64,000 bases of DNA, from assembly GCA_041891055.1 (NCBI GenBank), contig CP169074.1, forward strand, positions 1,120,001 through 1,184,000, in the 5' to 3' direction. Position numbers and translations under genes: made by a program. The notes below the pieces were generated by a model. The model saw only the letters and a list, made by a program, of their open reading frames with translations. It had not been told where the DNA came from and searched no databases. Shown here one piece after another: positions 1,731 through 11,734 of this stretch; within the stretch, counting starts at the first letter, position 1; every line of letters begins with the position of its first letter. The stretch is from Halorutilales archaeon Cl-col2-1. GTDB taxonomy: Archaea; Halobacteriota; Halobacteria; Halobacteriales; Afararchaeaceae.

Positions 1731-4700
1731 ATGCCCACGCGAACTGACCTCGACAAGGTCCTTCTCATCGGCTCAGGACCCATTGTGATTGGACAGGCGG
1801 CAGAGTTCGACTACTCGGGATCACAGGCATGTCGCGCGATACAGGAGGAGGGGATCGAAGTAGTCCTCGTCAACTCGAACCCCGCGACGATAATGACTGA
1901 CCCAGACATAGCCGACGAGGTCTACCTCGAACCTCTCGAGCCCGAGTACGTCGCTAGGATAATAGAGAAGGAAGACCCCGACGGTCTGATAGCCGGACTC
2001 GGAGGGCAGACGGGACTCAACGTCGCCGCACAGCTCGCCGATATGGACGTTTTGGAGGAGAACGACGTCGAGCTCCTCGGAACTGACCTCGAAACTATAC
2101 ATCTCGCCGAGGACAGACAGAAGTTCTACGACTTCATACAAGATATAGGCGAGAAGACGCCGCGGTCTATGACTGTGACGAGCCTCGACGAGGTCGACGA
2201 CGTCATAGACGAGTTCGGTCTTCCGGTTATCGTCCGTACGACCTACACTCTCGGAGGAAGCGGAAGCGGAGTCGTCGATACACGCGAGGAGTTAGAGGAG
2301 AAGGTCAGACGCGGTCTCAAGCTCTCGATGAACAACGAGGTAACTATTGACGAGTCGGTCGAGGGCTGGAAGGAGTTCGAGTACGAGGTCATACGTGACT
2401 CGACTGACACGTGTATAACCATCTGTAACATGGAGAACATCGACCCGATGGGTATACACACCGGGGAGTCGACCGTCGTCACTCCGTCACAGACGATAAG
2501 CGACGACGCACACCAGAGGATGCGCTCGACCGCTATAAAGGTCATACGCGAACTCGGAATAGTGGGCGGATGTAACATACAGTTCGCGTGGAGCGACGAG
2601 AAGGACGACTACACCATAGTCGAGGTCAACCCGCGTGTCTCGAGGTCGTCGGCTCTCGCGTCGAAGGCGACGGGATACCCCATAGCACGTGTGACTGCGA
2701 AGATATCGGTCGGTAAGAGTCTCGACGAGATAGAGAACGACGTCACTAAGGAGACTCCTGCCGCCTTCGAGCCGACTATAGACTACGTCGTCACTAAGAT
2801 ACCCCGTTGGCCCTTCGACAAGTTCCCCGAGGTCGACCGCACTATAGGAAGCGCGATGAAGTCGACCGGGGAGGTGATGTCGATAGGACGCACATTCGAG
2901 GAGTCGTACAAGAAGGCTCTGCGTTCGCTCGACATAGTAGAGCCCGAGTTCGAGTCGGAGGAAGAAGTCAGGAGATACCTCGAAACACCCACAGACATAC
3001 GTAACTTCGCCGTCTTAGAGGCGTTCAGGCACGACATAGACGTCGAGGAGGTCGCCGAACTCACCGGATTCGACGAGTGGTACGTCGCACGCGCGAAGAA
3101 GATAGTCGAGAAGGAGAGGGAGATAGCCGAAGAAGGCGACCAACTCACCGAAGAGACCGTGGAGGAGGCGAAGCAGATGGGATTCACCGACGACGAGATC
3201 GCCGAGAACGCCGGGGACGGTCTGACGAGAGGCGATGTCGACGAACTCAAGGGCGACGCGACCTACAAGATGGTCGACACGTGCGCCGCCGAGTTCGAGG
3301 CTGAGACGCCCTACTACTACTCGTCGTGGGAGTCGAAGAACGAGATCAAGGAGACAGAGGGCGACAAGGCTCTCATAGTCGGAGCGGGTCCGATACGTAT
3401 AGGACAGGGGGTCGAGTTCGACTACTGTACCGTCCACGCGATACAGGCACTCCGTGAGAGGGACATAGAGGCTCAGATAGTCAACAACAACCCCGAGACG
3501 GTATCGACAGACTACGACACCTCCGACAAGCTCTTCTTCGATCCCCTCACACTCGAAGACGTCGCCAACATAGTCGAGACAGAGGAGATAGACTCGGTGA
3601 TGACACAGTTCGGAGGACAGACGAGTGTCAACCTCGCCGTCCCTCTGTCGGAGGAGATAGAACGCAAGGGTCTCGACTCGGAGGTCGTCGGAACTTCACC
3701 CGACTCGATGGATCTCGCCGAGGATCGTGACCGTTTCAACTCGCTGATGGACGAGATAGGTGTTCCCCAGCCCGAGGGCGGAACGGGATACTCCGAGGAG
3801 GAGGCTCTCGAGATAGCCGACGAGATCGGCTATCCCGTCCTCGTGCGTCCGTCGTACGTCCTAGGAGGACGTGCGATGGAGATAGTCTGGGACGAACTCG
3901 AGCTCAGAGAGTACATGGAGGAAGCCGTCCGTGTCTCTCCCGACCATCCCATACTCATAGACGACTTCCTCGCCGACTCCGTAGAGCTCGATGTCGACGC
4001 CGTGAGTGACGGAGAGGACGTCCTCATAGGCGCGATAATGGAGCACATAGAGGAGGCAGGAGTCCACTCAGGTGACTCGGCGTGTGTCATACCGCCACAG
4101 AACATAGGCGAGGACGTCCTCGACAAGGCGCGCGACTACGTCCGCAGGATAGCACGCGCTCTCGACGTCGAGGGTCTTCTCAACGTCCAGATGGCTGTAC
4201 AGGACGACGAGGTCTACGTATTAGAAGCCAACCCGAGGTCGTCACGTACTATCCCCTTCGTGAGCAAGTCGGTCGGAGTCCCGATCGCGAAGATCGCCGC
4301 CGGGGTCATGATGGGAGCCTCGATAGACGACTTCGACTACGAGGACGAGCCATACGGCGAACACGTCACTGTCAAGGAGGTCGACCTGCCGTTCGACCGC
4401 CTTCCGGGTGTCTCTCCGACACTCTCGCCCGAGATGAAGTCGACGGGAGAGGTCATGGGGGTCGACTACGACTTCGGACGTGCCTTCTACAAGGCTGAAC
4501 TCGCCGCGGGCAACGCACTCCCCGACACCGGGAAGATATTCATAAGCGTGAGGGACAAGGACAAGGACGAGATAGTACCTGTGGCGAGAAAGCTCGACGA
4601 CCTCGGCTTCGACTTAGTGGCTACCGAGGGAACACAGGCACATCTCAAGCAGAACGGAATAGAGGCGGAGTTCATAGAGAAGGTACACGAGGCATCTCCC

Positions 4701-4937
4701 AACGTCGTCGACCTCATGAAACGTGACGAGATCGACCTCATAATAAACACACCCGACGAGAAGACGGCGAGGGACGACGGAGCCGACATACGACGCGCCG
4801 CAGTCGACAGGGACGTCACCTATATCACGACAGTGAGAGCCGCCGACGCCGCAGCCGACGCCATAAAGGCAGCGAGGGACGAGGAGATGTCGGTCAAGTC
4901 GATAGAGGACTACATAAACGAGTCGGAGGACGAGTAG
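1731..4937 (+). CDS. carB: Carbamoyl-phosphate synthase large subunit
   Basis: GSGPIVIGQAAEFDYSG, two ATP-grasp halves, C-terminal MGS domain; 1068 aa. Confidence 0.98.
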   Translation: MPTRTDLDKVLLIGSGPIVIGQAAEFDYSGSQACRAIQEEGIEVVLVNSNPATIMTDPDIADEVYLEPLEPEYVARIIEKEDPDGLIAGLGGQTGLNVAAQLADMDVLEENDVELLGTDLETIHLAEDRQKFYDFIQDIGEKTPRSMTVTSLDEVDDVIDEFGLPVIVRTTYTLGGSGSGVVDTREELEEKVRRGLKLSMNNEVTIDESVEGWKEFEYEVIRDSTDTCITICNMENIDPMGIHTGESTVVTPSQTISDDAHQRMRSTAIKVIRELGIVGGCNIQFAWSDEKDDYTIVEVNPRVSRSSALASKATGYPIARVTAKISVGKSLDEIENDVTKETPAAFEPTIDYVVTKIPRWPFDKFPEVDRTIGSAMKSTGEVMSIGRTFEESYKKALRSLDIVEPEFESEEEVRRYLETPTDIRNFAVLEAFRHDIDVEEVAELTGFDEWYVARAKKIVEKEREIAEEGDQLTEETVEEAKQMGFTDDEIAENAGDGLTRGDVDELKGDATYKMVDTCAAEFEAETPYYYSSWESKNEIKETEGDKALIVGAGPIRIGQGVEFDYCTVHAIQALRERDIEAQIVNNNPETVSTDYDTSDKLFFDPLTLEDVANIVETEEIDSVMTQFGGQTSVNLAVPLSEEIERKGLDSEVVGTSPDSMDLAEDRDRFNSLMDEIGVPQPEGGTGYSEEEALEIADEIGYPVLVRPSYVLGGRAMEIVWDELELREYMEEAVRVSPDHPILIDDFLADSVELDVDAVSDGEDVLIGAIMEHIEEAGVHSGDSACVIPPQNIGEDVLDKARDYVRRIARALDVEGLLNVQMAVQDDEVYVLEANPRSSRTIPFVSKSVGVPIAKIAAGVMMGASIDDFDYEDEPYGEHVTVKEVDLPFDRLPGVSPTLSPEMKSTGEVMGVDYDFGRAFYKAELAAGNALPDTGKIFISVRDKDKDEIVPVARKLDDLGFDLVATEGTQAHLKQNGIEAEFIEKVHEASPNVVDLMKRDEIDLIINTPDEKTARDDGADIRRAAVDRDVTYITTVRAADAAADAIKAARDEEMSVKSIEDYINESEDE

Positions 4938-4985
4938 ACGGCTAACTACCTTTCTGTTTCAGCTTCGTATTTTTCGTGTCTTCGT

Positions 4986-5000
4986 ACCCAACTGGTTTGG
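4986..5000 (+). promoter_or_regulatory. Bat upstream activator sequence (UAS), followed by TATA-like ATATATAT at 5011-5018
   Basis: ACCCAACTGGTTTGG has one mismatch to the recalled Halobacterium UAS consensus ACCcnactagTTnGG; ends 38 nt before ATG 5038; bat is in the same cluster. Confidence 0.75.
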
Positions 5001-5037
5001 CTGTGTCTTGATATATATCTGTGACGTATATAAGCCG

Positions 5038-5103
5038 ATGCCAGCACCAGGTTCGAGACAGAGTTCTGAGCCGAGAAGGGATTCAAGGGGGGACACGAGG
5101 TAA
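5038..5103 (+). pseudogene. 21-aa mini-ORF MPAPGSRQSSEPRRDSRGDTR, probable 5' remnant of a bacterio-opsin gene
   Basis: ATG lies where a leaderless start is expected after UAS+TATA; first 6 aa match the recalled Haloarcula cruxrhodopsin N-terminus MPAPGS; TAATG overlap with the transducer start. Confidence 0.5.
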
Positions 5104-6728
5104 TGCGAGGGTCTGAGTCTGTTCTTCCGAGTAGGCTACGGGAGAGCTACACCGCGAAGCTAACCGCGGTTCTCTTCACAGCCGTAGTGACCACGGTGGT
5201 CTTCGGTGTAGTCCTCCTCAGACAGGTCGAAGAGGGAGTCTCAGACACTACTTCGGGTGTCGTGGGTCTGATACTCCTAAACGTCGTCAACCTGGGTCTC
5301 ATAGGATCGACAATAGGGAGTAACACGGCTATATCACTCGAAGTTCTCCAGAGGAAGTCGTCGAGAATGGGTCGGGGAGACCTCGACGTCGACCTCGAAA
5401 CCGACAGACAGGACGAGATGGGAGACCTGTATGACTCGTTCTCCAAGATGAGGGACTCGCTGAGACAGAAGATAGACGAGGCGGAGCGCGAAAGGGAGAG
5501 GGCAGAGAAACAGAAGAGGATAGCCGAGGAGAGACAGGAGGAAGCCGAGGAACTCAACAGACGTCTCGCGGAACAGGCTGAGAGGTACAAGGACGTCATG
5601 AGGGACGCCGCAGACGGAGACCTCACGAGACGTGTCGACGCCGAGACACGTAACGACGCGATGAGGGAGATAGGAGAGGCTTTCAACAGCATGATGGACG
5701 GCTTAGAGGAAACTGTGGCTAAAGTAAAGGGATTCTCGGACGAGGTCTCCGACTCGACACGTGAGGTCGAGAGAGGCGCGAACGAGATACGTGAGTCGAG
5801 CGAGCAGATAAACAGTTACATACGTGAGATATCACGCGACACCGACGAACAGGACGACAAGCTACAGAACATATCGACCGAGATGAGCGACCTGTCGGCG
5901 ACTATAGAGGAGGTCGCGTCGTCGGCTGACGAGCTAGCGGGGACTTCACAGAGGATGGCTGATCTGGGTCAGGAGGGAAGAGACGCAGCCGAGATAGCCA
6001 TAGACGAGATCAACCAGGTCGAGTCTGAGACCGAGAAGACGGTCGAGGAGATAGTCAAGCTCGACGAACAGATGAAGGAGATAGAGGAGATAGTCGATGT
6101 CATCACCGACATAGCTGAGGAGACCAATCTACTCGCTCTCAACGCGAGCATAGAGGCGGCGAGGGCGGGAGAGGAAGGAGACGGCTTCGCTGTCGTCGCC
6201 GATCAGATAAAGGAGCTCGCCGAGGAGACAAAGAAGTCGGCGTCCGAGATAGAAGAGGTCATATCCGACGTACAGGATCAGACCGAGAGCACAGTGGACG
6301 ACATACGTGAGACGAGCGACAGGATAACCAAGGGTGTCGAGACAGTCGAGGACACCGTCGAATCCCTCGAAGAGATAGTCGGATACGTCGAGGAGACCAA
6401 CTCGGGAGTCCAGGAGATCCGTGACGTGACCGAGAGCCAGGCTAACTCAACACAGGAGGTCGTGTCGGTCACCGACGAGGTCTCCGAGCTCAGCAGAAAC
6501 ACAGCCGACGAGGCGAAGAAAGTCACCGACGAAGCCGAGAGCCAGACCGAGATAGTCAAGTCAGTCTCGGAGAGAGCCGAGAGACTCGCCGATGGAGCCG
6601 ACGACCTCAACGAACTCCTTGAGGGCTTCGATGTCAAATCTAAGTCTGACGTCAACGGCAATGTAACGGCGCGAGGAGTAGAGAGGTCGGATTTAGCACA
6701 CGCAGACGGAAAGGGAGGTGAGAGGTAG
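5103..6728 (+). CDS. Sensory rhodopsin transducer, HtrII-like (2 TM, 2 HAMP, MCP signalling domain)
   Basis: NLGLI...SRMGRGDLDVDLETDRQDEMGDLY closely resembles N. pharaonis HtrII; MCP hairpin ETNLLALNASIEAARAGEEGDGFAVVA; abuts the opsin gene. Confidence 0.92.
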   Translation: MRGSESVLPSRLRESYTAKLTAVLFTAVVTTVVFGVVLLRQVEEGVSDTTSGVVGLILLNVVNLGLIGSTIGSNTAISLEVLQRKSSRMGRGDLDVDLETDRQDEMGDLYDSFSKMRDSLRQKIDEAERERERAEKQKRIAEERQEEAEELNRRLAEQAERYKDVMRDAADGDLTRRVDAETRNDAMREIGEAFNSMMDGLEETVAKVKGFSDEVSDSTREVERGANEIRESSEQINSYIREISRDTDEQDDKLQNISTEMSDLSATIEEVASSADELAGTSQRMADLGQEGRDAAEIAIDEINQVESETEKTVEEIVKLDEQMKEIEEIVDVITDIAEETNLLALNASIEAARAGEEGDGFAVVADQIKELAEETKKSASEIEEVISDVQDQTESTVDDIRETSDRITKGVETVEDTVESLEEIVGYVEETNSGVQEIRDVTESQANSTQEVVSVTDEVSELSRNTADEAKKVTDEAESQTEIVKSVSERAERLADGADDLNELLEGFDVKSKSDVNGNVTARGVERSDLAHADGKGGER

Positions 6729-7433
6729 ATGGTTGAGATAACCGACACGACGACATGGTTCTGGATAGGCGCGGTAGGTATGTTCGCGGGAATGGTAGTC
6801 TTCGTAGCCTCAGGTGTCAGGAGCGACGACGAGACGAGGAAGTACTACGGTGTCATAGCCGCGGTCGCCTTCATAGCGTCCGCAGCCTACGCTGCGATGG
6901 CTCTCGGTATAGGCTCGCTCGAGTCCGACGGAGTGACCGTATACCTCCCGAGGTACGCAGACTGGCTGATAACGACACCCCTACTCATACTTGACCTGGG
7001 TCTCCTCGCGGGTGTCAATAAGAAGACGTACGCGGCTCTGATAGGCTCAGACGTCGCGATGATAGGATCGGGAGTCGCGGCGTCGCTCTCGACCTCCTGG
7101 GTCAAGTACGTCTACTTCGGCGTGGGATCGGTGGCTTACGTGGTTCTCCTCTACCTACTCATGAGAACCCTCTCGGACGCCGCGAGGGGCAGAGGAGTCG
7201 CGTCTCTGTTCCAGAAGCTAAGGAACCTGACAGTAGTCCTGTGGTCGGTCTATCCCGTAGTCTGGCTGGTCGGACCCTACGGAACGGGTCTCTTAGAGCC
7301 CGCTACCGAGACTATCATAATACTCTATCTCGACCTCATAACCAAGGTCGGGTTCGGTTTCATACTCGTCAACAGCCACGACGTCCTGTCGTCGATACGT
7401 ACCCCCTCGACGGCGGACGTAGCCGAGACGTGA
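6729..7433 (+). CDS. Microbial rhodopsin, SRII-like scaffold with DTD motif
   Basis: 7 TM; PRYADWLITTPLLILD (helix C), LWSVYPVVW (F), YLDLITKVGFG with retinal Lys206 (G); ATG directly follows the htr TAG. Confidence 0.95.
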   Translation: MVEITDTTTWFWIGAVGMFAGMVVFVASGVRSDDETRKYYGVIAAVAFIASAAYAAMALGIGSLESDGVTVYLPRYADWLITTPLLILDLGLLAGVNKKTYAALIGSDVAMIGSGVAASLSTSWVKYVYFGVGSVAYVVLLYLLMRTLSDAARGRGVASLFQKLRNLTVVLWSVYPVVWLVGPYGTGLLEPATETIIILYLDLITKVGFGFILVNSHDVLSSIRTPSTADVAET

Positions 7434-7439
7434 TCAGTC

Positions 7440-7646
7440 TCAGTTCCCTTCTACCTCAAAGATAACACCGAAGACGTGGTCGTTAGGACACGAGAGACGT
7501 CTTAGCTTTCCTCCTTGGCTTCGCCGTCCCCGGCTTTCCTCGTTCTCGTAGTCAGTCTCGAAGACCCCTTTTACCGTCGCGTCCCACGGGAGACCCATCT
7601 TGACATTGACACCGCATATGGGACACCGTATATCCCGAACAGGCAT
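7440..7646 (-). CDS. brz: Brz-like bacteriorhodopsin-regulating small zinc-finger protein
   Basis: CPICG-VKMGLP-ATVK...CPNDHVF matches the recalled H. salinarum Brz pattern (CPRCG..VKMGLP..ATVK..CRNDHEF); divergent from brp as in H. salinarum. Confidence 0.8.
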   Translation of the reverse strand: MPVRDIRCPICGVNVKMGLPWDATVKGVFETDYENEESRGRRSQGGKLRRLSCPNDHVFGVIFEVEGN

Positions 7647-7695
7647 CGTTGGGAGACGATGGTAGACAAGTGCTTAAGCCTACTCCTTGTTGTAC

Positions 7696-7710
7696 ACCCC
7701 AACAGTTAGG
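7696..7710 (+). promoter_or_regulatory. Second Bat UAS upstream of brp, followed by TATA-like TTTTAATA at 7716-7723
   Basis: ACCCCAACAGTTAGG keeps all ACC..TTnGG core positions; ends 37 nt before brp ATG 7747. Confidence 0.65.
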
Positions 7711-7746
7711 CCTCGTTTTAATAGTGTGACGGAGCCTATTCTAAGT

Positions 7747-8766
7747 ATGACGAGTTTTGGTCTCCGAAGACTACGGAGACGCGGACGGTCGAGTTCGTAC
7801 CTCACGAGGTCGAGGCTCGGTTTACTTTCACTGACGGTCGGCTTCGGTATCTTGGGTCTCGCGGGCATAGGAGTCTCACTGCGTCTCCAGTCTGCCGTCT
7901 ACCTGATAGGGATGGTGGCGATGAACCTCCCCCAGGGTGGCTACGAGAACTTACATAACCTCGACGGACGTGGCACGAGGTTCCAGATGGGATACATAGC
8001 CTCCTACGTACTCACCATAGCGGCTTTCACAGCCGTCTTCTTCTTCGACCCCGTCGTGGGACTGGGTCTCGGCGTCTTTGTCGCGATGGCTAAGGGAGGC
8101 TTCGGAGACCTCAGCGTCTTGGAGACCATCTACGGCGACCACATAAAGACAGATATCCAGAGATGGCTAGCTGCGGCGGTCAGAGGTGGTGTCGTGATGG
8201 TAGTTCCGATGGCTTTCCATCCCGAAGCTTTCTACGGTCTGAGCTCCGTGATGGTGAATATATTCGATCCCGGTGGTCTCACGAGACTCGGATACGGGAG
8301 CTTCGAGACCGCGAGCCGTGTCCTCGGGGCTGTTCTCTGTGCCATAACTGGGGTTTACCTGGTTCTGGGGTACATACGGTCAGACGCGACGGGGTCGTTC
8401 AGGTCTGACGCGGGCGAAATCTTCCTCCTAGTCGCCTACTTCGCAGTGACTCCCGTCGTGGTAGCCGTTGGTCTCTACTTCCCCCTGTGGTACTCGGCGA
8501 GACAGGTCGCCCGTATGAGGGCGGTCGACGACTCCGAGACGGAACGGGACGGCTTTGACGCCCCGGCTGTAGTAGTCTCACTCGTCGTGGCGAGCGTCGT
8601 GTTAGGTGGTCTCGTGTGGTCAGTCTCGCCACAGCCCCTCGGTGGTGCGAGAATCCTACCAGGACTCGTGGCTTTCTGGACGGTATTCGTGAGCATAATA
8701 GCACTTCCCCACGTAGTCATTGGAGGGCTTATAGACAGGTCGAGGGGGATATGGTACGTCCCATGA
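7747..8766 (+). CDS. brp: Brp/Blh family beta-carotene 15,15'-dioxygenase (Brp-type)
   Basis: GMVAMNLP, QRWLAAAVRGG, GLYFPLWYSARQVAR, IIALPHVV..RGIWYVP; start moved to ATG 7747, downstream of TATA. Confidence 0.9.
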   Translation: MTSFGLRRLRRRGRSSSYLTRSRLGLLSLTVGFGILGLAGIGVSLRLQSAVYLIGMVAMNLPQGGYENLHNLDGRGTRFQMGYIASYVLTIAAFTAVFFFDPVVGLGLGVFVAMAKGGFGDLSVLETIYGDHIKTDIQRWLAAAVRGGVVMVVPMAFHPEAFYGLSSVMVNIFDPGGLTRLGYGSFETASRVLGAVLCAITGVYLVLGYIRSDATGSFRSDAGEIFLLVAYFAVTPVVVAVGLYFPLWYSARQVARMRAVDDSETERDGFDAPAVVVSLVVASVVLGGLVWSVSPQPLGGARILPGLVAFWTVFVSIIALPHVVIGGLIDRSRGIWYVP

Positions 8767-8841: not shown

Positions 8842-10872
8842 ATGACGGATCAAGGAAGGATACTCTACGCAGGCGGTGAGATAGACGGTATCAGCCCTGA
8901 GTCGGTAGACGAGAGTCTCGACCGGCTCGAGGTCGTACACGAATCCGACTTCGTCACGGCTCTCGAATCCGCCAGGGAAACCGACGTCAGAGGCGTGATC
9001 GCCTCCCACCGGACTAACGGCTTCAGAGGCGTCGACCTACTTGAGTCGATGCGTCAGGAGGGGCTGGGAATCCCCGTAGCCGTGGTAGTTCGGGAGGAGG
9101 AGGCAGGCGAAGTGGCACGCAGAGCAGTCGAAGCCGACGCCACGGCTTTGGTGCCAGCAGGCGATGACGACGCTCTCGAAGCCTTAGCTGACGCGATCGA
9201 GAGAAACATGAGCACCGAGGATGGACGTAGACGTGAAGAAGACAGACGTATGCCAATATCCGACCTGCCCTTCGAGGACGAGAGACGTCTCAAGGAACGT
9301 GTCCTTGACGAGGCACCCATAGGAATCACGGTCTCGAACGCCGACGACCCCGATAACCCCATAATCTACCTCAACAAGTCGTTCGAGAGTCTGACTGGGT
9401 ACTCGGCCGAGGAGGTAGTGGGTGCGAACCACAGGTTTCTACAGGGAAGCGAGACCGACACCGAGAAGGTCGAGGAGCTCGGAAGAGGTGTCTCAGAGGG
9501 GCGTGACACACGGGTTACACTGCGTAACTACACCCGGGACGGTGACCTCTTCTGGAACCAGGTAGACGTAAGCCCTATATCCGACTCAGAGAACGAGACG
9601 TCTTATTACGTGGGGTTCCAGATGGACGTCACCGAGCGCGAGAGATTCAGACACGAGCTTGAGGAGGAGCGCGAGGCTTTCGACCGTCTCATAGACCGGA
9701 TGAACAGTCTCATCAACGACATCACGAGATGTCTTGTACGTGCCGAGAGCCGCGAGGAGGTCGAGGAGTCAGTCGTCGAAAAGCTCGGCGAGGAGTACGA
9801 TCAGGCTTGGATCGGAAGGTACAGCCCCACGGACGGCGAGGTGACTGTAGACGAGACCTCGATACGAGACAGAGAGGAACGACAGAATAGAATCAGCGTC
9901 GGAGAGGAAGACTCCGAGCGAGTAGTGAGTGACGTAGTCGAGAGACACGAGACAAGTGTCGTCGAGGGCGACGAAGCCGAGTCCCTCCGTCGTCGTATAC
10001 TGGACGGGTCAGTCGACGACTCCAAGTCGGGGTCTTCTTTCTGTGTCACCGTCCCCGTGACCTACCAGTCGACGACATACGGTGTGATTGGTGTCTGGGG
10101 AGACGGTGAGAGACTCGACACCAGGGAGCCTGGGCTTCTCGCGTCGGTCGCCAGAAGCGTTGGGGCATCGATCAACGACGTCTTGACTAAGAGGACTATG
10201 TCGACCGACTCGGTGGTGCGCCTGGGTATTCGGATAGAGAACGACGGATCGCCTCTCGTGGAAGTCGCCGACGAGGTTGGAGGGAGTCTCGAATACGAGG
10301 GTGCCGTGACACAGGGCGGCGGTATAGCTATACTCGTGAGTACGTCAGCCGACCCAGGGGAAGCCGTCGAAGCTGCGGGACAGAACAGCGGCGTTGTAGA
10401 CGCCGAGGTACTCGTCTCAGACGAAGAAGGAACTGTTGTACAGATACGTGTCGATCGAATCGGTCTCGTGAGTGAGGTCTCCGAGCACGGTGGCCGTCTG
10501 AGGTCGATGGAGGTGACACCCAACGGCGTCGAGGCGGAGCTGGACGTCGGAAACGAGAGAGAAGCACGCCGTCTCCTCGACCGTCTGAAACAGACCTACT
10601 CAGGGTCGGAAGCTGACGTCAGTCTCGCAACCTACAGAACAGTAGAGGAAGCATCACAGACGACACAAGGCTTCAGAAACGAGGTAAGAGACCGTCTGAC
10701 ACAGCGTCAGATGACAGCCCTCCAGAAGGCGTATACGGGAGGCTTCTTCGACTGGCCCAGGCGTGTCGAGGGCGAGAGGCTCGCCGAGTCGATGGACATA
10801 GTTCCGTCGACCTACCACCAGCATCTACGTACCGCGGAGAGAAAGCTCATAGAGGCTTTCCTAAACGGCTGA
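8842..10872 (+). CDS. bat: Bacterio-opsin activator (receiver-like, PAS/LOV, GAF, HTH_10)
   Basis: NHRFLQG...LRNYTRDGDLFWNQV LOV-like PAS; C-terminal LTQRQ..AYTGGFFDWPR..STYHQHLRTAERK HTH; follows brp. Confidence 0.92.
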   Translation: MTDQGRILYAGGEIDGISPESVDESLDRLEVVHESDFVTALESARETDVRGVIASHRTNGFRGVDLLESMRQEGLGIPVAVVVREEEAGEVARRAVEADATALVPAGDDDALEALADAIERNMSTEDGRRREEDRRMPISDLPFEDERRLKERVLDEAPIGITVSNADDPDNPIIYLNKSFESLTGYSAEEVVGANHRFLQGSETDTEKVEELGRGVSEGRDTRVTLRNYTRDGDLFWNQVDVSPISDSENETSYYVGFQMDVTERERFRHELEEEREAFDRLIDRMNSLINDITRCLVRAESREEVEESVVEKLGEEYDQAWIGRYSPTDGEVTVDETSIRDREERQNRISVGEEDSERVVSDVVERHETSVVEGDEAESLRRRILDGSVDDSKSGSSFCVTVPVTYQSTTYGVIGVWGDGERLDTREPGLLASVARSVGASINDVLTKRTMSTDSVVRLGIRIENDGSPLVEVADEVGGSLEYEGAVTQGGGIAILVSTSADPGEAVEAAGQNSGVVDAEVLVSDEEGTVVQIRVDRIGLVSEVSEHGGRLRSMEVTPNGVEAELDVGNEREARRLLDRLKQTYSGSEADVSLATYRTVEEASQTTQGFRNEVRDRLTQRQMTALQKAYTGGFFDWPRRVEGERLAESMDIVPSTYHQHLRTAERKLIEAFLNG

Positions 10873-10915
10873 TATGTCGGGAGCCTCTGAAGCAAACCCA
10901 AGAGGGTGGTAGATT

Positions 10916-11734
10916 ATGTCTTACCTCGCCTATGTGACTGTGTCAGTAGTGGGGGTCTCAGGTGTGGTGGCTATCGTAGCGTGGCACAGACGGGGACTGA
11001 GAAGGCTGTCCGACGTCCTCGGTGTAGGTGTCCTGAGCCTGATAGCCGTGGGTTACACATTCGGATGGGACGCGTATCTCATATACAGGGATGTATGGTG
11101 GTACGGCGACGGTGTCGTAAGCTTCCGCATCGTAGGAGTCCCCGCAGGGGAGATACTCTTCTTCGTAGCCCAGACTTCGCTGACATCGTTCTGGCTGTAC
11201 AGTCTCAAGCCCGACTTCGGCAGGAGTCTCGGAGAGACCGAGCCCGATAGACACCGCGACGGATTCGGGCTCGACCCGGCTCTCGTTACTGTCGTTCTAG
11301 GAGGCGTATCAGGTCTCCTTCTCGTCTTCGTGGCTCCCCAGAGGTACTACTACCTGGGTCAGATACTCGTCTGGGGAGCCCCGATGGTGTTCTTCCTCTG
11401 GTACGTCGGCAGTGAGATACTCCGTGAAAACATACGTCTCGTCGTAGCCGGAGTGGCTGTTCCGACCGTATACCTCTGGGGAGTCGACAGAGCCGCTATA
11501 CAGAGGGGTCTCTGGACCATCTCGGAGGAACACTCGACCGGAATAGGACTTCTAGGTCTACCCTTGGAGGAGATGGTGTTCTTCGGAGTGACTAACAGCC
11601 TCGTCGTCTTCGGCTTAGTCCTATATCTCTGGGTGGCTGAGCGCGCTAGAGACGGAGAAAAAGAAGAGGACTATCTGACTGGCATGAGACGCCTGATACT
11701 CGGGGTCAGAGACGGGGACGGGAACACGAGATAG
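10916..11734 (+). CDS. crtY: Lycopene beta-cyclase (CrtYcd fusion type)
   Basis: Two cyclase repeats WD..I...W.Y..GVP..E.LFF and VDR.AI..G.W.I..GLPLEEMVFF; in retinal cluster. Confidence 0.88.
   Translation: MSYLAYVTVSVVGVSGVVAIVAWHRRGLRRLSDVLGVGVLSLIAVGYTFGWDAYLIYRDVWWYGDGVVSFRIVGVPAGEILFFVAQTSLTSFWLYSLKPDFGRSLGETEPDRHRDGFGLDPALVTVVLGGVSGLLLVFVAPQRYYYLGQILVWGAPMVFFLWYVGSEILRENIRLVVAGVAVPTVYLWGVDRAAIQRGLWTISEEHSTGIGLLGLPLEEMVFFGVTNSLVVFGLVLYLWVAERARDGEKEEDYLTGMRRLILGVRDGDGNTR

Follow-up and report, generated by a model that had tools for sequence, protein, structure and literature searches.

In Halobacterium salinarum, activator sites are reported to precede bop, brp and crtB1 (PMC1447603), and Brz is described as required for bop and crtB1 mRNA (PMC2253796). 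The locus analysed here resembles this bop/Bat/Brz regulon in that an activator site precedes a TATA box, the start is leaderless or nearly so, and bat and brz are located nearby. As in the purple-membrane regulon of H. salinarum, a second activator site is found at brp. Unlike at H. salinarum bop, the promoter is followed by a 21-codon stub, a transducer gene and a gene for a sensor-type opsin, and brz is convergent with the opsin gene rather than directly upstream. The TATA run and the ATG of the stub are also 5 nt closer together than their counterparts in BR genes.

The genes behind the stub are comparable to the HtrII-SRII pair of Natronomonas pharaonis: htr comes first, the stop codon of htr and the start codon of the opsin gene abut, and the transducer combines two membrane segments with HAMP and MCP domains. 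Identity of the opsin to NpSRII is 42%, and the Tyr, Tyr, Asp, Thr and Lys residues aligned in helices F and G are retained. The opsin differs from SRII of the N. pharaonis type in having Asp where SRII-like proteins have Phe or Tyr, and in its position outside the SRII/SRI-like clade. Middle rhodopsin of Haloquadratum walsbyi was placed evolutionarily between BR and SRII (PMC8354847); by contrast, a full transducer is encoded alongside the present opsin, and the genome also has genes for chemotaxis and the archaellum. Laboratory constructs in which the bop promoter drives sensory rhodopsin-transducer pairs have been reported (PMC6450946), whereas here such an arrangement is natural and present in two species which differ at 13% of four-fold sites.

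Coordinates below are positions in the window, i.e., the whole stretch of 64,000 nucleotides that was analysed (Halorutilales archaeon Cl-col2-1, contig CP169074.1). The features of the locus are as follows.

1731..4937, plus strand: carB, carbamoyl-phosphate synthase large subunit, the upstream neighbour (Pfam CPSase_L_D2, E 4.8e-105)
4985..5002, no strand assigned: bop-type upstream activator site TACCCAACTGGTTTGGCT, which has the near-palindromic form TACC-N10-GG
5011..5018, plus strand: TATA run ATATATAT, starting 8 nt behind the activator site and 27 nt before the stub ATG
5027..5033, plus strand: second TATA-like run TATATAA, conserved in the sister species
5038..5052, plus strand: probable bop relic, first five codons ATG CCA GCA CCA GGT (MPAPG), identified by its identity to BR starts
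5038..5103, plus strand: stub ORF of 21 codons, translated as MPAPGSRQSSEPRRDSRGDTR and ending in TAA, with the start ATGCCNNNNCCNGG behind the activator site
5086..5094, plus strand: purine- and G-rich run AGGGGGGAC located -17 to -9 relative to htr, where it could act in reinitiation like a Shine-Dalgarno element
5101..5105, plus strand: TAATG stop/start overlap of stub and htr, in which TAA (5101-5103) shares its last A with the htr ATG (TGATG in the sister species)
5103..6728, plus strand: HtrII-like transducer, 541 aa, with two N-terminal hydrophobic segments, HAMP and MCP signalling domain
6729..7433, plus strand: opsin, 234 aa, with R75, D78, T82, D89, D202 and K206, the only opsin of the genome
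7440..7646, minus strand: brz homologue, a CPxCG zinc ribbon, convergent with the opsin gene and divergent from brp
7695..7712, no strand assigned: weaker activator-like site in the brz/brp divergent region (matrix score 9.5 on the minus and 6.2 on the plus strand)
7747..8766, plus strand: brp/blh-type beta-carotene 15,15'-dioxygenase (Pfam BCD, 2.7e-59), its start taken at ATG 7747
8842..10872, plus strand: bat, with PAS, GAF, BAT and HTH_10 domains (Pfam BAT 1.2e-25, HTH_10 5e-21)
10916..11734, plus strand: lycopene cyclase of the crtY type (Pfam Lycopene_cyc, 7.3e-08)

The elements noticed in the sequence-only reading, namely ACCCAACTGGTTTGG at 4986-5000, the TATA run at 5011-5018, ATG at 5038, the 21 codons and TAATG, are positioned exactly, and its activator-to-ATG distances (5000 to 5038 at the stub, 7710 to 7747 at brp) hold.

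The activator matrix was derived in this work and trained only on 30 BR loci from 13 other genera and 6 families. These loci are not independent, as they represent 13 genera only and 10 of them belong to a single genus. With this matrix the site at 4985-5002 scores 18.2 bits on the minus strand and 16.5 bits on the plus strand, ranking first and fourth among the 4,129,118 positions of the 2.06 Mb genome. Scores of at least 16 are reached at four positions genome-wide, and 13 sites score at least 14. A comparable sequence, CCAACTGGTTTGGC, is located upstream of the BR gene in locus L015. Ordinary htrII-sopII operons do not have such a site: between -260 and +30 the best matrix score was 0.3 to 8.2 in 6 out of 6 loci that match htr at the N terminus and have an htr start that can be recognised (in a seventh, L058, no start was recognisable). 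In a search with an ungapped nhmmer profile of the BR promoter and start, the site was the top match in the genome, but at a non-significant E of 12, so this result is not counted as support.

Of the 30 BR loci, 23 have an A/T run that follows the activator site at a distance of 3-8 nt; the gap equals 8 nt in seven of them, six of which are g19 loci, and the same 8 nt separate the two elements at the stub, compared with 3 nt at brp. The activator-to-ATG distance of the stub is 35 nt, which is outside the BR range (38-41 nt in 28 of the 30 loci, 40 nt in 21). Only 3 of the 53 promoter nucleotides (4985-5037) differ between the two species, against 13% of four-fold sites, and two of the 15 activator bases delimited by the sequence-only reading are altered in the sister species. 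A TTTTT run is present at 4971-4975, between the carB stop codon and the activator site. Sigma-70 and terminator scans, both not designed for archaea, were empty.

The first 14 nt of the stub are identical (14/14) to the BR gene starts of three out of the 30 BR loci (L026, L027 and L032), which read MPAPGSE; the BR start named in the sequence-only reading is a real one. The genome has a single exact copy of this 14-mer (ATGCCAGCACCAGG). BR proteins begin with MPxPG in 19 and with MxxPG in 26 of the 30 loci. The pattern ATG-CCN/GCN-NNN-CCN-GG has 14 occurrences in the genome, and about 0.0007 such starts would be expected 30-45 nt behind any of the 13 sites scoring at least 14. Ser6 is encoded by TCG in the stub and by AGC or AGT in all 16 BR genes with Ser at this position, so the homology to bop probably stops after codon 5 (GGT). 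This would correct by one codon the earlier proposal, in which bop was lost after codon 6. Residues 6-21 of the stub have no match in the 30 BR loci or in 20 SRII loci, and comparison of 5053-5102 with these loci gave only short matches at the chance level, the best of them (16/17 nt, E = 0.22) lying about 500 nt upstream of BR in L028, L030 and L035. No seven-helix opsin body follows the stub start in frame, and the frame closes after 21 codons. The feature is a fragment rather than a gene.

We consider it probable that 4985-5052 represents the surviving 5' end of bop, now heading the htrII-like/opsin operon. What is directly observed is that the sequence is homologous, that bop is missing from the genome, that its regulators are present and that the sister species has this arrangement too; the sequence-only reading was right in assigning the activator site, TATA run and start to the bop type, in taking bop to be lost and in placing this promoter at the head of the htr-opsin operon. 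The surviving part would comprise a Bat/Brz-type activator site, a TATA run at the bop spacing, the start codon and four more codons, while the remainder of bop would have been lost from the genome. The relic would have become joined upstream of the htrII-like/opsin operon, which would then most likely be transcribed from the old bop promoter. Bat and Brz, both encoded next door, would switch the operon on together with retinal synthesis (brp, crtY), provided that the promoter is, as we infer, active and Bat-dependent. The deletion or rearrangement may have happened shortly before the two species split.

The sister species (G001), the only other species of the family available, has the same stub arrangement. 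Its stub reads MTATGSRQSSEPRRDSRGETR and ends in TGA; it starts with MTATGS, with threonines replacing both prolines. This start and the altered activator bases suggest that the exact match of the present genome to BR genes partly reflects a less-decayed copy. The stubs differ at 6 of 65 nt, compared with 13% of four-fold sites, and three of the five changes in sense codons alter the residue, i.e., the stub evolves at about the neutral rate. Given this near-neutral divergence and the 16 codons without relatives that follow the relic, the stub peptide itself is probably under no selection.

Being a relic does not preclude a function for the start codon. The transcript may begin at or just before A5038 and the stub may serve as a ribosome landing pad: ribosomes would initiate at the 5'-terminal AUG, translate 21 codons up to TAA and reinitiate at the htr ATG. 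We hold this to be a tentative possibility, compatible with the relic. Strict termination-reinitiation coupling was reported for 13 of 14 pairs, with 9 pairs from Haloferax volcanii (Huber et al., 2019, PMC6728339), and the same report ascribes to haloarchaeal Shine-Dalgarno motifs a role in reinitiation and not in initiation at 5' UTRs. The stub/htr junction shares with the coupled pairs described there the TAATG/TGATG overlap and a purine-rich motif before the downstream start. It differs from them in that the upstream partner is a 21-codon relic instead of a gene, and its AUG is a putative part of the mRNA. Within this genome, starts inside operons are preceded by G-rich runs 4.6 times as often as those of first genes; the run at 5086-5094 is of this kind, and the C5094G substitution in the sister species creates GGAG at -12 of htr, the peak position of the motif of internal genes. 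Also in favour of a functional mini-ORF, the ATG, the frame and the stop overlapping htr are retained in the two species and in the strain represented by metagenome run X1, no other ATG, GTG or TTG is present in 5041-5102, and folding of the leader is no stronger than that of shuffled sequences (z = +1.35). Retention of a 21-codon frame in two species is, however, expected by chance, and the near-neutral divergence of the stub speaks against selection on it. GAGGT, located directly before the ATGs of both htr and the opsin gene, was rejected as a Shine-Dalgarno site, as GAGG is spaced at -14 to -11 in this genome.

A difficulty for leaderless initiation at the stub lies in the position of its TATA run. 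Among 1840 ORFs of the genome, all-A/T hexamers before the first ATG peak at -30/-31 (144 and 130 cases) and fall to 49, 31 and 22 at -27, -26 and -25 over a background of about 22; in BR loci the run is at about -32 to -34. With a run only 27 nt before the ATG, the spacing predicts a transcript start at about 5040-5043, inside or behind the AUG, and this is the range which the sequence-only reading had named as speaking against itself. A shifted TATA register, starting from TTG at 5008, would allow a start at 5037-5038, while the second TATA-like run at 5027-5033, if used, would by its spacing put the start near 5055-5060.

The way in which the relic came to precede htr can also be questioned. 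In situ deletion would predict a bop of about 750 bp at this place in relatives, but none of the relatives has an intact bop between carB and htr, and the sole close one has the same stub; deletion on the spot is therefore unproven. Synteny counts against it as well, by the criterion set in the sequence-only reading itself: carB, htr or brz is within 1.5 kb of BR in 0 of the 30 BR loci, and a BR gene is within 4.5 kb of SRII in 0 of the 20 SRII loci, although synteny across families is weak evidence. Alternatively, the promoter and five codons could have been moved or copied to htr from a bop elsewhere, either between bat and crtY or behind brz as in H. salinarum. We find such a rearrangement rather unlikely. 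The gene order in other families is bat, bop, crtY, brp, and neighbours of BR within 1.5 kb include bat in 9, crtY in 18 and brp in 12 of the 30 loci; bat and crtY are just 44 nt apart in the present genome; and brz, reported to directly precede bop in H. salinarum (PMC2253796), here faces the 3' end of the opsin gene. Yet neither a promoter nor a stub has left a trace in the bat-crtY interval, 4940-7440 is not flanked by inverted repeats, and a single deletion from an ancestral order bop, htr, opsin would take fewer steps.

It is improbable that the promoter has always been the operon's own and never belonged to bop, htr-opsin being simply a member of the Bat regulon with a coincidental likeness over five codons. 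Such a view would agree with the activator-like site of brp, which is followed by TTTTAATA at -31 of brp in a region almost invariant in the sister species, with the SRII operons that adjoin brp or crtY in two other genera (L039, L042), with the MTATGS start of the sister species and with the lack of a bop at the carB/htr position in relatives. It would leave unexplained a start codon with no gene behind it and a match of 14/14 nt to BR starts that directly follows the highest-scoring activator site of the genome, at an expectation of about 0.0007 composites. The activator-to-TATA gap is also of the bop and not of the brp type, and none of the six comparable htrII operons has a site scoring above 8.2.

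An assembly or binning artefact joining a bop fragment to an htr contig is a negligible concern: the source name of the sister protein points to a metagenome assembly, but the separately assembled sister genome shares the junction at 93% identity, and contigs from two metagenome runs of two studies (X1 and X2) bridge it, record 3 of X2 covering the entire 4800-5300 stretch, though these contigs are not fully independent, since the runs may be the source samples of both genomes.

The brz, brp, bat and crtY genes next to the operon are intact. The brz product matches Pfam PF23454 Zn_ribbon_Brz (E 3.1e-14, 53.7 bits against a cut-off of 27.9) and is 73.5% identical in the sister species. The lycopene cyclase is 35-45% identical to the product of the gene after bop in 18 of the 30 BR loci. 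Both genomes of the genus have a single opsin gene, yet brz, brp, bat and the lycopene cyclase gene are retained beside it. A search of metagenome contigs with Brp retrieved one locus only (47% identity, on a 2.4-kb contig).

The transducer (Pfam MCPsignal 2.3e-45, HAMP 2e-16) is 41-48% identical to the SRII-adjacent transducers in 7 of the 20 SRII loci, and the opsin ATG directly abuts the htr TAG. One PF01036 gene was found in each of the two genomes, which are 99.5% complete for the present species and 98% complete for the sister. The opsin is placed outside the clade of 27 SRII and 7 SRI-like proteins with support of 98/94, and the topology is unchanged without helices C-D (SH-aLRT 90). 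At the position of BR Asp96 it has Asp89, while DTF or DTY is found in all 76 SRII-like matches showing the motif, and Asp occurs there in 0 of the 67 next-best matches. Encoded with its own transducer, the opsin is a candidate for a form linking proton pumps with sensors.

In its own right it may be noted that the opsin bears the Asp-Thr-Asp triad of BR and branches in the tree between BR and all sensory rhodopsins. We speculate that, after the loss of BR, the whole light-and-oxygen regulon of Bat and Brz could have been rewired onto the sole opsin, which is transducer-coupled and, given its triad and its place in the tree, would signal and move protons at once. The relic AUG would have survived as a landing pad for leaderless initiation that feeds htr via TAATG. 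This wider scenario appears unlikely in its entirety.

Promoter capture in archaea that is datable and visible at the sequence level would be the broader significance of the locus. The regulon (Bat, Brz, retinal synthesis) has outlived its main target and now appears to control a phototaxis receptor; if true, an old regulatory switch was reused following gene loss. Low oxygen and light would then be predicted to induce phototaxis, as they induce purple membrane elsewhere. The locus is moreover a test case provided by nature: it bears on the ability of a relic AUG at the 5' terminus to load ribosomes for the gene downstream, and on the precision with which haloarchaeal promoters set the transcript start.

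Several minor observations concern the opsins. Searching metagenomes with the opsin gave matches at 96% and above or at 52% and below, and none in between. Two short BR-like proteins, considered as candidates for middle rhodopsin, were compared with solved structures and had either no match or a match to deltarhodopsin only. A recent BR/SRII chimera was considered as the origin of the opsin and rejected: residues 71-125 are nearer to BR than to SRII (mean identity from 0.74 vs 0.67 down to 0.40 vs 0.31), yet they never reach BR-to-BR levels.

The region ahead of the transducer-opsin operon in the window is not a bop (bacteriorhodopsin, BR) gene but probably a five-codon fragment of one, fused to a different operon. 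All the elements claimed by the sequence-only reading are found exactly where it placed them. ACCCAACTGGTTTGG occupies 4986-5000, separated from the stop codon of carB upstream by a stretch that includes a TTTTT run (4971-4975); the TATA run ATATATAT covers 5011-5018. The mini-ORF, hereafter the stub, starts with the ATG at 5038 and has 21 codons (translation MPAPGSRQSSEPRRDSRGDTR), and its TAA (5101-5103) shares one base with the ATG of the next gene. Pfam scans and reading of the sequence gave the following gene order:

1731-4937, plus strand, carB (Pfam scan)
5103-6728, htr, transducer of 541 aa with HAMP and MCP domains (Pfam scan)
6729-7433, opsin of 234 aa, its ATG directly after the TAG of the transducer gene
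7440-7646, minus strand, brz homologue coding for a zinc-ribbon protein of 68 aa (Pfam Zn_ribbon_Brz, E 3.1e-14)
7747-8766, brp (Pfam scan)
8842-10872, bat (Pfam scan)
10916-11734, lycopene cyclase, crtY (Pfam scan)

The brz homologue and the opsin gene are convergent, with stops 6 nt apart, and the brz product has the lowest identity to its sister-species copy among the cluster proteins (73.5%). The opsin is the only PF01036 gene in the genome (2.06 Mb, 99.5% complete); the sister-species genome (98% complete) also has one. Since CheW-domain genes, nine MCP genes and archaellins are encoded in the genome, a phototaxis operon is plausible.

For comparison, 30 BR loci from 13 genera of six other families of the order were collected and the gene starts located in each. 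An 18-nt matrix was trained on their upstream regions, with the activator site of one BR locus (L026) as a seed and the window never shown in training; the motif is a near-palindrome TACC-N10-GGTA. Scores of at least 16 bits occur at only four of the 4,129,118 genome positions scanned, and the site at 4985-5002 ranks first on the minus strand (18.2 bits) and fourth on the plus strand (16.5 bits). The A/T run lies 8 nt from the activator site, the distance being 3-8 nt in BR loci and 8 nt in one genus (g19). The ATG is located 35 nt past the site; among the 30 BR loci, 21 have a distance of 40 nt and 28 fall at 38-41 nt. Two BR loci, L009 and L020, lack a good activator site. Overall, the feature is built like a bop promoter in three of the four tested respects and is predicted to work like one. 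An ungapped profile HMM covering promoter and start ranked the stub site first in the genome, but without significance (E = 12). The activator-site scan also returned four copies of TAACCAACATTTTGGACA outside the window (C2:34085, C2:105048, C2:109764, C1:607). The roughly 25 nt that follow are nearly the same in all four, which gives them the look of termini of a repeated or mobile element.

Ordinary operons of sensory rhodopsin II (SRII) differ from this arrangement. Of 20 control htrII-sopII loci, an N-terminal htr match was obtained in seven, and the htr start could be recognised in six of them; the best matrix scores in these six (range -260 to +30) were 0.3 to 8.2. The window brp has a weaker activator-like site (7695-7712, 9.5 and 6.2 bits), followed 3 nt later by TTTTAATA at -31, and because of this weaker site and the closer A/T run the stub promoter has the bop and not the brp architecture. 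The divergent brz/brp promoter region (7690-7750) is nearly invariant between both species. Searches of open-access papers and preprints turned up no account of a comparable relic or of an htr operon preceded by a Bat-type site.

The coding start points to bop as well. BR genes begin with MPxPG in 19 and MxxPG in 26 of 30 cases, and the start MPAPGSE, named in the sequence-only reading, does exist: L026, L027 and L032, all BR loci, begin MPAPGSEGIWLW. ATGCCAGCACCAGG is common to these three and the window without mismatch and occurs once in the genome. There are 14 starts of the form ATG-CCN/GCN-NNN-CCN-GG in the genome, of which about 0.0007 would be expected 30-45 nt behind an activator site scoring at least 14 (13 sites). 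Ser6 is encoded by TCG in the stub, whereas AGC or AGT is used in 16 of 16 BR genes with Ser there, so homology to bop most likely stops after GGT of codon 5. Of the proposed truncation of bop after codon 6, the bop-like start holds and the boundary probably shifts by a codon.

No closer or intermediate relatives than the sister species were found in the collections searched. Its genome (G001) is 93% identical over 4700-5400, and its genes run as in the window: carB, stub, htr, opsin, brz, brp, bat. The bop gene anticipated at the stub position in a close relative is thus not seen there. The G001 stub is MTATGSRQSSEPRRDSRGETR, with a TGA stop likewise overlapping the ATG. Metagenome contigs from two runs of two studies bridge the junction, X2 being of the G001 type and X1 near-identical to the window type, though both may be source samples of these genomes. 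Between the species, 74 of 564 four-fold degenerate sites in htr, opsin and brp differ (13%), as do 6 of 65 stub positions, so the stub drifts at about the neutral rate; for the promoter stretch (3 of 53) the pace is perhaps slower. The window genome keeps fourteen relic bases intact, two of which are changed in G001, and from this we infer that bop was probably lost not long before the species split. The activator site, TATA run and stub are free of indels between the species; immediately upstream of the activator site, in the stretch matching 4955-4985, several small insertions and additional TTTCTG-like repeats set the G001 locus apart.

The simplest path to this arrangement starts from an ancestor in which bop, htr and opsin followed each other, and takes one deletion. 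Rearrangement bringing the relic ahead of htr is about equally likely. The order in other families is bat, bop, crtY, brp, but no promoter trace between bat and crtY (10872-10916) was found by sequence reading and matrix scan, nor were inverted repeats found flanking the operon. Of the 30 BR loci, 9 have bat within 1.5 kb of the BR gene, 18 have crtY and 12 have brp; carB, htr and brz are near it in none, and a BR gene is absent from all 20 SRII loci. The 44 nt from bat to crtY in the window correspond to bop's place in the 9 of 30 BR loci showing bat. Linkage of sensor and retinal genes is not unique to this genome, since in two other genera an SRII operon adjoins retinal-synthesis genes: at L042 htr diverges from crtY and brp, and at L039 brp lies inside the locus.

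That the stub AUG is present on the mRNA and feeds htr seems possible but somewhat doubtful. The ATG, frame and overlapping stop are preserved in both species, 5041-5102 holds no other start codon, and the leader is unstructured (z = +1.35). A G-rich run is located at -17 to -9 of htr; in this genome, operon-internal starts are preceded by such runs 4.6 times as often as first genes are, and the G001 run includes GGAG at -12, the peak position of the internal-gene motif. Published work also favours stub translation: according to PMC6728339, 13 of the 14 gene pairs examined, nine pairs from Haloferax volcanii included, showed strict termination-reinitiation, and haloarchaeal Shine-Dalgarno motifs were reported to act in reinitiation and not in 5' UTR initiation. 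The TATA geometry argues against it. All-A/T hexamers before the first ATGs of 1840 long ORFs of the genome peak at -30 and -31 (144 and 130) and number 49, 31 and 22 at -27 to -25 (background about 22), while ATATATAT gives exactly positions -27, -26 and -25 relative to the stub ATG, past the peak. With such spacing the transcript would be expected to start at 5040-5043, G5040 after T5039 being a good candidate; a TATA-protein register from T5008 would possibly shift the start to 5037-5038. The finding would gain interest if the relic AUG proves used.

The same would hold should the opsin turn out to be intermediate between pump and sensor. Its closest relatives are the sister protein (96% identity) and then SRII-type proteins (45-54%). 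Although encoded behind a full HtrII-like transducer, it has, together with the sister opsin, Asp-Thr-Asp (D78, T82, D89) at BR positions 85/89/96, the proton-pump triad, instead of the DTF or DTY seen in 76 of 76 SRII-like matches showing the motif; a third-position Asp is absent from all 67 next-best matches. In helices F and G the opsin keeps the aligned residues of NpSRII that presumably have signalling roles. In a 58-protein tree covering BR, SRII and SRI-like proteins besides the opsin pair, with neither halorhodopsins as outgroup nor a named middle rhodopsin among them, the pair branches at the node that separates the BR clade (22 rows, support 100/100) from a single clade of 27 SRII and 7 SRI-like proteins (98/94), a placement that is provisional as to the root and to middle rhodopsin. 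Removal of residues 68-125 left the topology unchanged (SH-aLRT 90).
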